From Alphaproteobacteria bacterium (GTDB lineage Bacteria; Pseudomonadota; Alphaproteobacteria; SP197): a stretch of DNA of 64,000 bases. Shown in pieces: positions 17,544 to 59,204 of the stretch. The stretch spans positions 64,001-128,000 of the forward strand of contig OZ219919.1 in assembly GCA_964291415.2 (NCBI GenBank), given 5' to 3'. The notes beneath the pieces are model-generated. The model made no database searches and was not told the DNA's origin. It saw nothing but the letters and a program-made list of their open reading frames with translations. How positions within the stretch are numbered: the first letter of the stretch is position 1; every line of letters begins with the position of its first letter. Both the position numbers and the translations under genes were made by a program.

Positions 17544-17748
17544 CTCTCCGGAGATCGCGTCATGGCCGTGCCACGCCCGTGAATTCCGGGACGCGCGACA
17601 CATGACAGTCCGGTGAAGCCAATGTCGAAAGGCGCGTCGCCGCACCCGGAGGACTTCCCTTGCGACCCGGCGCGGATTAGGCTTGATCCTCGAAAGCATG
17701 CCCGTTGCGGCATGCCCATGAACAAGAACTGACAGGGAAAGCGCCAAC

Positions 17749-19347
17749 ATGAGCAAACAACAACTCGACTGGATGATTGACGAGATCAGGGCCGGCCGCC
17801 TTGATCGCAGGGAATTCATCGGTCGCGCCGGCCAGCTCGGCGTCGGAGTGGCTGCAGCAACGACCATGTTGAGCAGCGCCGGCATCGCCGAAACGCCGAT
17901 CAAGGGTGGCGAGGTCCGCGTCAGCCCGGAGTACACCGGTGCCGAAGAGACCTACGATCCCACCAAGATGACCAACAGCACGGACATCCAGCGTGCCTAT
18001 CAGGTCTACAACAGGCTGACCAACCTTGACCGCGACATGAATGTCGTTCCCAACCTGGCGGCCGAATGGGAGGCCACCAACCAGGCTTCCGAGTGGACCT
18101 TCAAGTTGCGCGAGGGAGTCGAGTTCCACGACGGAAAGACCCTGACCGCAGACGATGTCATCTACTCCCTTGGCGAACACATCAAGGAAGGCTCCGAATC
18201 GCCTTCCAAGCCCCTGCTTGCACCCATCGTGGACATGCGGGCCGATGGACCCAACGTCGTCAAGATCACCCTCGATTCGGGCAATGCCGACTTCCCGGTC
18301 ACACTGGGGCACGACTATCACACGTCGATCGTCAAGGAAGGCTGGAAGGACGGTGATCCCGTTGTCGGCACCGGACCCTACAAGGTCGTGGAGTTCACCC
18401 CGGGGCTGGCCTCGGTCGCCGAGAAGAACGCAAACTACTGGAATCCGGATGCCGGTCACGTCTCGACCTTCATCACCCAGGGAATTCCCGACAACGCGGC
18501 ACGGTCGAGCGCCCTGCAGGCCGGTGATGTCGACTTCGACCTTGATGTCGAACCCCGCGTTACCGCGTTGCTGGGCCAGAATCCCGGTGTCAAGGTCTAC
18601 TCGACGCCTTCCGGCTCCTGGTTTGCCTGGATCATGGCAACCGACAGGGCGCCCACGGACGATCTCAACCTGCGCCTGGCGATGAAACACGCCGTCGACC
18701 GGAATGTCGTCGTCGATACGGTGATGGTCGGGCATGGCCGGATCGGCAACGACTTCCCGGTCAACCCGGGACTGCCGACCTACTGCGACGCCATCCCGCA
18801 GCACAACTACGATCCGGAAAAGGCCAAGTGGCACTGGGACAAGACCGGTCTCTCGTCGATCGAGCTTGCCGTCGCGAACGCGGCGCATTCGAACGCCATC
18901 GACGCCAGCACCATTCTCCAGGAGCACGCGCGGGAAGCGGGCATTTCCATCGAACTCAACCGTGTGCCCGATGACGGCTACTGGAGCCACACCTGGATGC
19001 AGGTGCCGTTCTGTGCGACCGGCTGGAACTCCCGTCCGACCGCCGATGCGATCCTGACGATCGCCCATGCCTGTGGCGGGTCCTGGAACGAGACGTTCTG
19101 GTGCAACGAGCGGTTTGACGAGTTGCTCGTCATGGGCCGTCTGGAGACGGACGAGGCCAAGCGCCTGGAAATCTACTGCGAGGCGTGCACCCTGCTGCAC
19201 GACGACGGTGGACTGTTCCTGCCTTTCTTCATGAACTACATCGAGGCAACCTCGTCGCGGATCCAGAACTATCACGGCAGTCCTGCCTTCTCGGGCGGCG
19301 CCGGATGGCCTTACGAGGAAGTCTGGATCGACGAAAGCAAGGCCTGA
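17749..19347 (+). CDS. ABC transporter substrate-binding protein, family 5 (Tat-like leader), copy 1
   Basis: DRREFIGRA leader; PNLAAEWE, WTFKLREGVEFHDGKTLTADDVIYS, VGTGPYKV. Confidence 0.93.
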   Translation: MSKQQLDWMIDEIRAGRLDRREFIGRAGQLGVGVAAATTMLSSAGIAETPIKGGEVRVSPEYTGAEETYDPTKMTNSTDIQRAYQVYNRLTNLDRDMNVVPNLAAEWEATNQASEWTFKLREGVEFHDGKTLTADDVIYSLGEHIKEGSESPSKPLLAPIVDMRADGPNVVKITLDSGNADFPVTLGHDYHTSIVKEGWKDGDPVVGTGPYKVVEFTPGLASVAEKNANYWNPDAGHVSTFITQGIPDNAARSSALQAGDVDFDLDVEPRVTALLGQNPGVKVYSTPSGSWFAWIMATDRAPTDDLNLRLAMKHAVDRNVVVDTVMVGHGRIGNDFPVNPGLPTYCDAIPQHNYDPEKAKWHWDKTGLSSIELAVANAAHSNAIDASTILQEHAREAGISIELNRVPDDGYWSHTWMQVPFCATGWNSRPTADAILTIAHACGGSWNETFWCNERFDELLVMGRLETDEAKRLEIYCEACTLLHDDGGLFLPFFMNYIEATSSRIQNYHGSPAFSGGAGWPYEEVWIDESKA

Positions 19348-19374
19348 TCAACCAGGCCGCCTGATGATTCGGGC

Positions 19375-19410
19375 AAGCGCCAGCGGCTTTTGCCGCTGGC
19401 GCTTTTCTTT
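19375..19410 (+). terminator. Intrinsic terminator after SBP copy 1
   Basis: AAGCGCCAGCGGC-TTTT-GCCGCTGGCGCTT followed by TTCTTT. Confidence 0.85.
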
Positions 19411-19594
19411 CTGAAGTCCGCAGGAATGCGATGCGGCGATCACGGCGGCAGGCCGCCGGTGAAGCCAGGGTCCAACAGCGCCTTGCAGCACCCGCAGGAC
19501 TTTCCTCGAGGCCCGACCCGGACTAGGCTTGGATCTCGCATGCGTGCCCTCTGCGGCACGACAATGAACAAGAACCGACAGGGAAAGCGCCAAC

Positions 19595-57008: not shown

Positions 57009-57041
57009 CGTACAATTATCATACAATTCGCATAACACATT
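57009..57041. promoter_or_regulatory. 11-bp-period direct repeats in a divergent AT-rich promoter
   Basis: CGTACAATTAT CATACAATTCG CATAACACATT, followed by TATACT. Confidence 0.6.
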
Positions 57042-57106
57042 GTATACTGCGTGTTCTCACCAACGAAGCCGGTGATCATCAGCGTTCACAAACGAAGGGA
57101 GTAACG

Positions 57107-58178
57107 TTGTGAATCGAAGAATCAGAGGAGGGATTGTGGGGTTCATGTCGGCGGCCGTCCTGGCGATTGCCGGGACCGCGAGTGCGGACAGCAACGAACC
57201 GATCAAGATTCCCATCAAGAACTGGTCGAGCCAGATCGTCATGGCCCACGTCATCGGTGGCATCTTCGAGAGCATCGGCGCCACCGTCGAGTACGTGCCT
57301 GTCGACAACCAGGCGAGTTTCGAGGCCGTGCGCGTCGGCGACATCCACATCCTTCACGAGGTGTGGCAGTCGACCATGCAGAATGCCTACTACAGCGCCA
57401 TGGAGAAGGGCGGCCTGATCGATGCGGGCACCCATGACGCCGAGACGCTGGAGGAGATGGGTGTGCCGAACTGGGTGATCGACCAGGGCCTGTGCCCCGG
57501 CCTGCCCGCCTGGGAGGCGCTCAAGGACTGCTATGCCAACTTTGCCACCCCGGATTCCGGCGGCAAGGGCCGCTGGCTCGAAGGTCCCCAGAGCTGGCAC
57601 GGCGACATCATGCCCAACCGCATCAAGGGGCTGGGGCTCGACGACACCTGGGTGGTCAAGTTTGCCGGTGCTGCCGATGCCCTGTGGGCCGAACTCGAGG
57701 CGGCCAAGAAGGAAGGACGCGGCACGATCATCTTCAACTGGACCCCGAACTTCACGGATGCCGAAGGGTTCACCTTCATCGAGTTTCCGCCCTACTACGA
57801 CGGTTGCCGCATCGTCGATGGCGGCGACCTGAGTTCCACGGGTTGCGGCTCACCGGTCGGCTGGCTGAAGAAGGGAGCGCATTACAGGCTTCCGAAGACC
57901 CATCCCCAGGCCTACACGGTGTTCTCGAAACTCACGTTCAACACGCCGCAGATCGGCTCCATGGCGGCTCTGGTCGATCTCGACAAGATGACCCATGAGG
58001 ATGCCGCGGCCAAGTGGCTGGCTGACAACGAGGACGTCTGGAAGCCCTGGACCGAATCGGTTCTCGGCGAAAGCAACTGAACGCAGCTCTCGGGCAAGGC
58101 AATCCTGCCTTGCGTGACATTTCTGTCGGGCCCTCCGTCACCGGAGGGCCCGATTGCATTAGAGCATTGACCCGGCCG
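57107..58178 (+). repeat. 1,072-bp inverted repeat, copy B
   Basis: Reverse complement of 36457-37528, including both downstream hairpins. Confidence 0.95.
57109..58080 (+). CDS. TmoX-like substrate-binding protein, orphan copy B
   Basis: Protein identical to copy A except residue 5 (I versus M); no permease or ATPase follows. Confidence 0.92.
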   Translation: MNRRIRGGIVGFMSAAVLAIAGTASADSNEPIKIPIKNWSSQIVMAHVIGGIFESIGATVEYVPVDNQASFEAVRVGDIHILHEVWQSTMQNAYYSAMEKGGLIDAGTHDAETLEEMGVPNWVIDQGLCPGLPAWEALKDCYANFATPDSGGKGRWLEGPQSWHGDIMPNRIKGLGLDDTWVVKFAGAADALWAELEAAKKEGRGTIIFNWTPNFTDAEGFTFIEFPPYYDGCRIVDGGDLSSTGCGSPVGWLKKGAHYRLPKTHPQAYTVFSKLTFNTPQIGSMAALVDLDKMTHEDAAAKWLADNEDVWKPWTESVLGESN

Positions 58179-58313
58179 GTGACCGGAAGGCTGGACCCTG
58201 ACACCAAGGCCCGGGCCGTGTGTTCGCTCGCCGCTGAAGGTGTCCTCGAAGAAGGAGGCCCCGGCATCGACCTCCGCCAGCCGCACATTGAGCGCCACGG
58301 GCACCTGTTTCTG

Positions 58314-59204
58314 TCAGGGCGAGGGCGCTGGTTTCAACGGAACACAGAGATCGGTCAGCAGATCGGCGAGCGGGGTGTCAAGCGGCGAGTTTCGGTAGAT
58401 CTCCATGTCCGGGCGATCATCGATGTCCTCGCCGCTTTGCGGCAACCACAGCGAATACATCCGCCGATATGCTTCCGCAATGCCGTCGTAGGGACCACGA
58501 TGGGTATAGATGGCGTAGCGCCCGGCAGGCAACGTGTCGAGGGTGATGCCGGGCGGCGGTACCGCGTCGGTTGCGAGTTCGAGGCAGGCATCGGAACGCA
58601 GGTTCTCTGGCGCAACATCGCCGGGATCGTCGAACGAGAGGGTGAGAATGCGTCCAGGCGTCGCGCCGACGCTTGCCGCCCACGCGAACAGGCGGTGGAA
58701 GCACGGGCCTACTTCGTCGTAGGGGCCGACATGGCGAATGCGGGCCACGCTGATGTCTTCGATGGTCTCGATGCGGATATCCATGTTGATGTCTCCTGTT
58801 GGCAGATCGATGTCCAGGCGTCCGGCGCCAGGGTCGTACCTGACCCGTGACGCCGGACCAGCAAGGGACGGAGGCGTTGAGACCGTGCGGTAGCGGCCCG
58901 GGCTCATCCCGCAGGCGCGGCGGAACGCTCTCGAAAAGGCCTCGGCCGAGTTGTAGCCCGCGTCCAGGGCAACATCGAGCACGTCGACGCTCTCATGACG
59001 AAGGCGCCAGGCGGCCCTCTCCAGACGCAACCGCCGCACGAGGCCGGCAATCGAATCGCCGGTCATGGCGCGGAACATGCGCTGGCAATGGAAACGAGAG
59101 AATGCCGCTTCGGCAGCCACTTCCTCGACCGTCCACGGATGATCGAGGCGCTCTGCAACGGCTTCAAGAGCCCGGATCAGCCGGCGGTGGGTCACGGAAC
59201 GCAT
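58314..59204 (-). CDS. AraC family regulator with GyrI-like effector domain
   Basis: SRFHCQRMF, RLRLERAA, DAGYNSAEAFSRAFRR, RHVGPYDEV, HRGPYDG, EIYRNSP, LLTDLCVPL. Confidence 0.95.
   Translation of the reverse strand: MRSVTHRRLIRALEAVAERLDHPWTVEEVAAEAAFSRFHCQRMFRAMTGDSIAGLVRRLRLERAAWRLRHESVDVLDVALDAGYNSAEAFSRAFRRACGMSPGRYRTVSTPPSLAGPASRVRYDPGAGRLDIDLPTGDINMDIRIETIEDISVARIRHVGPYDEVGPCFHRLFAWAASVGATPGRILTLSFDDPGDVAPENLRSDACLELATDAVPPPGITLDTLPAGRYAIYTHRGPYDGIAEAYRRMYSLWLPQSGEDIDDRPDMEIYRNSPLDTPLADLLTDLCVPLKPAPSP

Follow-up and report, generated by a model that had tools for sequence, protein, structure and literature searches.

The closest described pattern to the gene arrangements reported here is the insertion with long target duplication (ILTD) of restriction-modification genes, which the defining parts of Furuta et al. 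2010 (PMC2853133) present as inserts bracketed by variable-length repeats (>30 bp) of ordinary target sequence and devoid of a mobility gene; the same parts state that there is no experimental evidence on release of the unit or its invasion of a genome. Natural transformation of Streptococcus pneumoniae yields tandem duplications (TDs) and merodiploids that keep both alleles, and the corresponding portions of Johnston et al. 2013 (PMC3784515) describe in one clone 'an additive insertion ... creating a very small TD' beside the resident gene. In tandem paralogue clusters, as outlined in part of PMC2568036, the unit consists of the 3' end of a gene, a spacer and the 5' end of the next gene. Here we analyse a 64,000-nt stretch of an Alphaproteobacteria bacterium (GTDB SP197), positions 64,001-128,000 of contig OZ219919.1 in assembly GCA_964291415.2 (the window), in which slots between two conserved genes, A and B, contain two units in series in the layout A-cargo 1-B'-A'-cargo 2-B, where the inner copies of flanking sequence, B' and A', abut. 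The accessory genes in each slot vary across strains and species, and at two of the three loci in the window, as at three or more others elsewhere in the genome, the units are different alleles of the slot placed in series rather than replaced. This architecture is real and non-random and is a variant of the known duplication and long-target-duplication patterns. At the level of titles and abstract openings we found no published description of two-flank permuted joints between different cargoes.

Self-comparison of the window with blastn and find_repeats, together with alignments, gave this layout at all three clear loci (3/3), which we call L1 (solute-binding protein (SBP)/mttB), L2 (ureohydrolase/M48) and L3 (tcuA/AraC); the direct pairs at E ≤ 1e-5 were those of the three loci and one extra AraC-like piece, with no others. 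A sequence-only reading of the window had proposed the same layout for these loci and for a weak fourth one, tenA/DUF3047, which dropped out because its best repeat had E = 0.49 (blastn, word size 7, 26300-30000). That reading had pictured short scars, ~80-85% identical, copied from the ends of the flanking genes and sharing 0-2 bp where they meet. The description suits L2, with copies of the arginase-gene start (79.1%) and the M48 3' end (86.9%) sharing GG, and the identities at L3 (82.5% and 81.6%). It does not suit L1, where the joint shares ~3-4 bp and the repeat is a whole 1846-bp unit at 93.4%, nor the details of L3, where repeat B is internal to the AraC/GyrI gene (residues 198-227) rather than at its end and 12 diverged nt separate B' from A'. 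Homology between units thus extends over their full length at L1 (1851 nt) and over only 87-177 nt per end at L2 and L3.

The window is carried by a 180-kb contig (C3) of the assembly (G000; its other contigs are labeled C1, C2, C4 and C5, and relatives carry G-numbers). Whole-assembly self-comparison showed C3 to be collinear with C4:3-98157 (reversed), C5 and C1:1128668-1236011 (reversed) at 90-98% identity, mostly ~96%. Given this collinearity and a contamination score of 8.99% (completeness score 100%), C3 is a second haplotype inside a mixed assembly. The mixture is a caveat, yet the sister haplotype provides a very close relative for every locus.

Compared with ILTD as set out in the cited parts of PMC2853133, the inserts here are likewise missing from relatives whose flanks align (L2 against C5 and 7/11 relatives' loci, a stack on C5 against the window, and a C1 locus against 5 relatives), are likewise bounded by a >30-bp direct repeat of the target (B'/B, 64-300 nt here), have no transposase, integrase or other mobility gene in or beside them, and often carry defence genes. 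Unlike ILTD inserts in that account, they also carry a piece of the opposite flank (A') fused head-to-tail to the duplicated target, and therefore the inserted DNA would have come from the same slot; their repeats are 80-94% identical rather than near-identical; and their cargo holds no restriction-modification pair, comprising instead a lone HNH gene, ATPases and metabolic genes. The opposite-flank fragment fused to the duplicated target is the element that is new with respect to ILTD. The S. pneumoniae duplications, in the portions of PMC3784515 cited above, use long insertion sequence repeats at the joint, the very small case excepted, whereas the joints here show 2-8 bp of microhomology; moreover, those events arose in the laboratory under lethal-cassette selection in a competent species, and ComEC and DprA were not found in the present genome. 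Spontaneous non-homologous tandem duplications, as characterized in part of bioRxiv 10.64898/2026.05.22.727201, share with our loci 0-8 bp of microhomology and the lack of a long flanking repeat, and L1 fits this class completely; unlike them, the 'copies' at L2 and L3 share only 90-180 nt per end and their cargo genes are unrelated. In contrast to site-specific accretion stacks, two different gene ends are fused here and there is no common core. Homology-facilitated illegitimate recombination, which was defined in competent bacteria, usually deletes recipient DNA instead of duplicating it. One homologous exchange plus one microhomology joint, or a single crossover by a joint-bearing circle (Campbell-type), would yield the product observed.

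At L2, a Rieske oxygenase gene and an intact HNH_2 endonuclease gene occupy the slot between an arginase-family gene and an M48 peptidase gene (Table 1). Comparison with relatives confirms the two cargoes as alternatives for a single slot, with the Rieske gene seated inside the remnants of an HNH gene. Arginase, Rieske and M48 genes are contiguous in 7/11 relatives' loci (G002, G019, G006, G005, G004, G016, G012); three others show the Rieske and M48 genes, their arginase gene being either missing or beyond the fetched stretch, and the last shows only the Rieske gene. An N-terminal HNH remnant extending past the part that overlaps M48 (to residues 111-117) is present in 3/11 of these loci and a C-terminal remnant (residues ~299-351) beside the arginase gene in 6/11, so that the remnants flank the Rieske gene. 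The Rieske gene and a 96-nt repeat element probably replaced the interior of an ancestral HNH gene; C3 would therefore hold a derived and an ancestral-type allele in series. The element lies just upstream of the Rieske gene (39851-39946), has 7 genome copies at 82-89% identity as well as copies in several relatives, and has no Rfam match. In C3, B' ends at 41376 and A' begins at 41375, a 2-bp GG overlap, and the HNH gene begins at 42330, 5 nt past the M48 stop, and ends at 41443 within the arginase-gene copy. Neither the joint nor an intact HNH gene occurs in any of the 11 relatives' loci, and the joint is also absent from the sister haplotype (0/12 in all).

The sister contig C5 has HipA-like genes at L2, followed by the Rieske and M48 genes, and lacks the second unit. 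Identity between C3 and C5 is 98-100% over the Rieske gene (40050-41100), drops to 56-79% over the stack (41100-42400) and recovers beyond 42400, reaching 100% over 43061-43360. This profile, a 1.3-kb diverged patch between near-identical flanks, marks a recent homologous exchange by which the stack entered or left as a unit. The stack may therefore be a ready-made import.

L3 is a multi-layer hot spot in which the tcuA-like and AraC genes are convergent. The slot is empty in G014, where the two genes are ~50 nt apart, and in G012, as it is by hit coordinates in G004, G013 and G016. In the window it holds an AAA-DUF4143 ATPase gene, the B'-A' joint, a fumarylacetoacetate-hydrolase-family (FAA hydrolase) gene and a kinase-OpuAC layer. 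By blastn, B' (53023-53109) matches B (58561-58647) at 81.6% over 87 nt, and the extra AraC-like piece (54388-54473) matches 58420-58505 at 74%; the second AraC-like fragment to which this piece belongs, 54387-54515, is the seam of a further layer. The two AraC-like fragments, 53022-53111 and 54387-54515, abut at residue 227 but in permuted order and 1.3 kb apart, and their meeting at this residue may reflect a recurrent breakpoint or a single event. G019 has tcuA, AAA-DUF4143, FAA hydrolase and AraC genes without the joint. G006 has tcuA, a deleted AAA-DUF4143, the joint, 3.4 kb of other DNA, FAA hydrolase and AraC; its joint reads cleanly from AraC-like into tcuA-like sequence and is shared with the window at about 87%. 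Because it is common to another species at this identity, the L3 joint is old. In C5, 15 nt of B' are kept and are followed by 3 kb of unrelated open reading frames (ORFs); this DNA and the 3.4 kb of G006 are unrelated to each other. The kinase-OpuAC layer is missing from the slot in both G019 and G006, where the FAA hydrolase gene adjoins AraC. A separate proposal, that the abutting copies are the deletion scar of full-length paralogues, was discarded since the 3 kb of unrelated ORFs in the sister haplotype is Pfam-less and contains no AraC/tcuA pair.

L1 has a different history. Its units (17610-19459 and 19456-21306) are 93.4% identical over 1851 nt, each containing a gene for a 532-aa SBP_bac_5 protein, and unit 1 ends in a copy of the mttB start (19428-19459, 32 nt, 97%). 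The C4 haplotype has the same joint with a 29-nt mttB fragment, and so does species G006 (116 nt at 91%; mttB fragment 29/29). A single SBP gene lies between the 4'-phosphopantetheinyl transferase (PPTase) gene and mttB in the 7 relatives fetched (G014, G004, G012, G005, G001, G013, G010); the G019 contig stops short of the PPTase side. A maximum-likelihood tree of 19 SBP sequences groups the two copies each of C3, C4 and G006 with the single copy of G010 in one clade (81/96), within which only the pairing of the second copies of C3 and C4 is resolved (99/99), and G020 has its own, more diverged pair. The tree gives no sign of a foreign allele. Since both units hold the same gene, L1 is an ordinary tandem duplication that, from the tree, arose in the common ancestor of the species and its nearest relative.

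The recurrence anticipated by the sequence-only reading is borne out genome-wide. With repeat-dense regions dropped, 151 of 205 local direct-repeat pairs were kept and compared with 1000 position-jittered sets: 8 interleaved-and-abutting loci were observed against a chance mean of 0.67, the jitter maximum was 4 and no set (0/1000) reached 8. The interleaved abutting pairs, with one repeat-protein gene excluded, lie at C1:130524, C1:680370, C1:986950, C2:139220, two loci in the window, C4:635767, C4:831298 and C5:22265; C1:130524 falls out of the counted 8 when repeat-dense neighbourhoods are removed. At C1:130524 the order is the end of a luciferase-like monooxygenase gene, an aldolase gene and the end of a ferritin-like gene, joined to a second monooxygenase end, an AAA_16 ATPase gene and the ferritin-like gene. 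The unstacked aldolase form occurs in G019, G014, G004, G001 and G012 (overlapping hit coordinates); the AAA_16 ATPase is found at this slot in no relative, its sole match being partial and at another site, in G002. The unstacked second unit of C2:139220 is present in G006. The stack specific to C5, whose 8.6-kb cargo includes a giant Calx-beta gene encoding an 1849-aa protein, is joined at an 8-bp microhomology, CCAGGCCT, and is unstacked in the window haplotype; in 5-6 relatives parts of this cargo match other sites, and none of the matches falls between the OpuAC and thiamine pyrophosphate (TPP)-enzyme genes, where an unstacked donor would have them.

Each locus contains a head-to-tail illegitimate joint, the end of a segment fused onto its own start: 19456-19459 at L1, 41375/41376 at L2 and 53109-53122 at L3, where it has decayed in the window and is clean in G006. 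Long repeats are not present at the joints of L1, L2 and the C2, C1 and C5 loci, which have short microhomology only (~3-4 bp at L1, 2 bp at L2, 2 bp at C2, ~5-7 bp at C1:130524 and 8 bp at C5). B'/B lengths are 64 nt (C5 locus), 87 nt (L3), 122 nt (L2) and 156 nt (C1 locus). The units that these joints connect are slot alleles, and they are polymorphic for presence and absence among very close genomes. They come with no recombinase or att core, as had been proposed: a Pfam scan of 42 ORFs (13.4-61 kb of the window) returned 0 recombinases or transposases; none of the 21 genome matches to the tyrosine recombinase profile PF00589 falls on C3 or C5, serine recombinases not having been searched genome-wide; and only one 9-mer is common to any of the 28 pairs of 8 joints, ~1 being expected by chance. 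No methyltransferase was found among the ORFs scanned, and the cargo does not combine a restriction gene with a modification gene. The cargo includes the lone HNH gene, AAA ATPases, a hydrolase and a kinase. The expectation of differing cargoes with defence genes holds for L2 and L3, for AAA-DUF4143 (PADLOC candidate PDC-S01, 2.5e-92) and for the AbiEi/AbiEii pair, but not for L1, which has the same gene twice, and the PADLOC match of the HNH gene is weak (3.7e-09).

We lean, at somewhat better than even confidence, towards an origin in which a single illegitimate joint, head-to-tail, was combined with homologous exchange involving a diverged allele, the product later being moved between strains by recombination in the flanks. 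Illegitimate joining at 2-8 bp of microhomology would have attached the far flank (B) to the near flank (A), giving a joint of the kind characteristic of tandem duplication. DNA from a diverged relative spanning A'-cargo-B' would either close on itself or come from a donor with an existing duplication joint, and would recombine with the resident allele through flank homology, by a Campbell-type single crossover or a joint-carrying double crossover. Alternatively, an allele could have been imported into one unit of a transient duplication. No site-specific recombinase would be needed. Perfect identity between flank copies extends over no more than 18 and 25 nt at L2 and 25 and 17 nt at L3, the longest exact runs across L2, L3 and C1:986950 spanning 12-25 nt. 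Efficient RecA exchange usually requires about this length or more, which would explain how stacks persist: their repeated flanks would be too short and diverged to recombine readily. An established stack would spread to other strains, or disappear, through ordinary homologous recombination within the flanking genes.

Several observations weigh against this reading. An unstacked M48-HNH-arginase donor was not found among 40 relatives, where the HNH cargo has only 69% matches in other contexts; a scan of 185,579 species genomes gave 4 HNH loci (41-71%), none beside an M48 or arginase gene, and a metagenome scan gave 6 HNH loci (40-57%) and no donor, their gene neighbourhoods not having been examined. 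Unstacked alternatives were thus recovered in part: unstacked or empty forms exist at all three loci, but the unstacked HNH allele of L2 does not appear. Relatives' orthologues are about as distant (75-89%) from A' and B' as from the resident copies, which leaves the scars unassignable to another lineage. Attempts to assign A' and B' to a lineage by identity failed for the same reason. The view that related lineages' alleles are stacked holds for the L2 cargoes as alternative alleles, and does not extend to L1, which the SBP tree places demonstrably in-lineage. The 8-kb first cargo of C2:139220 sits at a different genomic site in 6 relatives and is not a simple allele, and the kinase-OpuAC layer of L3 occurs elsewhere in G006. 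The L3 joint being common to another species, its 16-18% flank divergence could have accrued in place. Single crossovers should also be rare events when the homology is 90-180 nt long and 80-87% identical. Finally, uptake machinery able to deliver relatives' DNA was not detected: in a genome scored 100% complete, and with matches in the control genomes, profiles for ComEC (PF03772), DprA (PF02481) and GTA_TIM (PF13547), a hallmark of RcGTA-type gene transfer agents, gave 0 matches, and transformation or gene transfer agents, the route suggested by the sequence-only reading, lack support in the gene content. Ku (PF02735) also gave 0 matches in the genome, and Ku/LigD end joining as the maker of the joints is unsupported.

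The alternative that survives best, which we regard as unlikely although a serious contender, is an old in-place tandem duplication of the slot with pieces of its flanks, after which the cargo of one unit was replaced or deleted, the copies diverged and most lineages lost one unit. L1 is exactly such a case, with the same gene in both units at 93.4% and its copies in one clade with those of the nearest species, and the genome contains other abutting tandem paralogues (TauD x2, 77%; S-Me-THD x2, 90%; an SDR pair, 87%). The age of the L3 joint, which G006 has at about 87%, agrees with this scenario, as do the microhomology joints left by spontaneous duplications in the cited part of bioRxiv 10.64898/2026.05.22.727201; the L2 stack, if imported ready-made, could be of any age. 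At L2, however, the duplication must predate the Rieske insertion, which is common to at least 7 species, and all of these and the sister haplotype must each have lost the HNH unit. The same problem of repeated loss arises at the C1 locus and for the sister-haplotype stack, and identical 1-2-kb tandem units are generally unstable, which makes long survival before remodelling unlikely. The choice between additive integration and old duplication with remodelling, both raised by the sequence-only reading, is narrowed and not settled: L1 is a plain tandem duplication, and for L2 and L3 both accounts stay in play.

We consider it improbable that cargo-only modules were placed by a recombinase acting in trans, in the manner of site-specific accretion at tRNA, ssrA or comM hot spots. 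The selfish or defence-type cargo and the lack of a recombinase in cis are what such placement would produce, but both flanks are copied and joined in permuted order here, whereas accretion repeats one flank only; the joint positions differ at every locus and have no common motif; the repeats are 64-300 nt of ordinary coding sequence; and neither C3 nor the sister contig C5 encodes a tyrosine recombinase.

Least credible of all is an assembly artefact, the alleles of two strains stitched in series: the assembly is indeed mixed (the 180-kb contig being a ~96% second version of parts of C4, C5 and C1, and the contamination score 8.99%) and the L2 stack is lacking in the sister haplotype, but the 2 bp common to B' and A' are too few for an overlap or k-mer path to connect them, the genome of a different species has the L1 and L3 joints, and a separately assembled, k-mer-based Logan contig from run X24 (1107 nt, 41307-42413, 70 nt of it left of the joint) crosses the L2 joint with 0 mismatches. 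Because the L1 and L3 joints recur in G006 and the L2 joint is bridged by the Logan contig, the joints are not assembler artefacts, and the strain-chimeric junctions feared in the sequence-only reading are very unlikely. Run X24, with 0.77 of the sampled words, is possibly the source sample itself, so that it checks the assembler and not the sample; other runs hold at most 0.20, the depth of the HNH bin is 0-0.97 in X1-X3 and no conclusion is drawn from them. In X24 the joint-spanning contig has a depth of 9.8 against 23-26 for neighbouring contigs, one number per contig and not a measurement, a hint that the L2 stack is present in just a fraction of the population.

The joint-plus-exchange reading bears on how defence and accessory genes are gained and lost at hot spots between conserved genes where no mobility gene is visible. 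These loci preserve the joint itself, with both flanking gene ends fused in permuted order at microhomology and no att site, and they point to ordinary illegitimate joining together with homologous recombination on relatives' alleles as an additive route of gene gain; genes, including some predicted anti-phage genes, would be added without a dedicated insertion enzyme. They further suggest a circle or a duplication joint as a concrete intermediate for ILTD and, if the reading is true, the opposite-flank fragment A' would be the missing clue to how ILTD of restriction-modification genes works. It is a tentative extension, which we rate as possible rather than probable, that such allelic stacking is a general recombinase-free route, in which a fragment of the same slot, closed head-to-tail or derived from a duplication joint, integrates through diverged flanks of a few hundred bases or less, persists and is traded as an allele. 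The signature, interleaved direct repeats with abutting inner copies, is simple and can be searched for in all genomes.

Table 1. Coordinates of the stacked loci, their flanking genes and the weak locus (window positions unless a contig is named).
Feature	Position	Strand	Evidence
PPTase gene, left neighbour of L1	16836-17543	+	Pfam ACPS 8.6e-19
L1 unit 1, SBP_bac_5 gene 17749-19347, 32-nt mttB-start copy at end	17610-19459	+	self-blastn, Pfam
L1 unit 2, SBP_bac_5 gene 19595-21193, extends 29 nt into true mttB	19456-21306	+	self-blastn, Pfam
MttB gene, right neighbour of L1	21278-22816		Pfam
TenA gene, weak locus	26394-27230		Pfam
AbiEi/AbiEii genes, weak locus	27441-28882		Pfam
DUF3047 gene, weak locus	29046-29762	-	Pfam
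Arginase-family (ureohydrolase) gene, L2 flank A	38767-39801	-	Pfam Arginase 7.5e-60
L2 repeat A, first 115 nt of arginase-family gene and 60 nt upstream	39686-39861		79.1% to A', 177 nt
Rieske ring-hydroxylating oxygenase alpha subunit gene, L2 cargo 1	39970-41145	+	Pfam Rieske, Ring_hydroxyl_A
L2 repeat B', last 90 nt of M48 gene and 32 nt downstream	41255-41376		86.9% to B, 122 nt; tblastn, M48 residues 331-361
L2 repeat A', copy of arginase-gene start	41375-41551		tblastn, arginase residues 1-36, 72%
HNH_2 endonuclease gene, intact, L2 cargo 2	41443-42330 (ORF 41443-42498)	-	Pfam HNH_2 1.2e-11
L2 repeat B, true 3' end of M48 gene	42303-42424		self-blastn
M48 peptidase gene, L2 flank B	42335-43420	-	Pfam
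FAD_binding_2 (tcuA-like) oxidoreductase gene, L3 flank A	50008-51495	+	Pfam
L3 repeat A	51409-51511		82.5% to A', 103 nt
AAA_14-DUF4143 ATPase gene, L3 cargo 1	51691-52953	+	Pfam; PADLOC PDC-S01 2.5e-92
L3 repeat B', AraC/GyrI-like fragment, residues 198-227	53022-53111	-	tblastn 73%, 30 aa
L3 repeat A', tcuA-like residues 468-495 and ~20 nt downstream	53122-53224	+	blastn, tblastn
Fumarylacetoacetate-hydrolase-family gene, L3 cargo 2a	53427-54227	+	Pfam
Second AraC-like fragment, residues 227-274	54387-54515	-	tblastn 44%, 48 aa, E = 1.7e-06
Hybrid histidine kinase/response regulator gene, L3 cargo 2b	54567-56915	-	Pfam
Second OpuAC binding-protein gene, L3 cargo 2b	57109-58080	+	Pfam
AraC/GyrI-like regulator gene, L3 flank B (repeat B 58561-58647)	58314-59240	-	Pfam
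Sister-haplotype stack: OpuAC end, 8.6-kb cargo, 64-nt TPP-enzyme gene piece fused to second OpuAC end, AraC, TPP enzyme	C5 2265-13175

Some further features of the two haplotypes were noted. Differences between C3 and its sister version are mainly insertions and deletions at slots between conserved genes. Identity between the haplotypes falls to 56-90% at gene ends and spacers beside cargo (51300-51800, 54155-54615), with the adjoining genes at 95-100%; these seams evolve, or are exchanged, much faster than the genes. Where the window has PhyH and arginase-family genes, the sister contig has a Mutator-family transposase fragment and a HipA-like toxin pair (C5 3-2422).

No tRNA gene was found in the 64-kb window by a tRNA scan, and the sole Rfam match is a TPP riboswitch at 22934-23037; neither scan gave anything at the joints. 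The sister haplotype lacks both the riboswitch and a thiamine biosynthesis operon (22819-27374), with ~1.7 kb of different DNA in their place (C4:9817-11540), and the edges of this difference carry no repeat. Elsewhere in the genome, tyrosine-recombinase gene clusters at C1:1175766-1188329 and C4:470246-475397, with three members having identical scores at both sites, look like a repeated multi-recombinase mobile element; the C1 copy sits in a stretch absent from C3. An inverted repeat of 1082 nt at 98.4% identity (36457-37538 and 57097-58178), formed by two copies of an OpuAC binding-protein gene, encloses ~19.6 kb that include L2 and most of L3. The sister-haplotype contigs break at both repeats, and the ~19.6-kb segment between them could be invertible.

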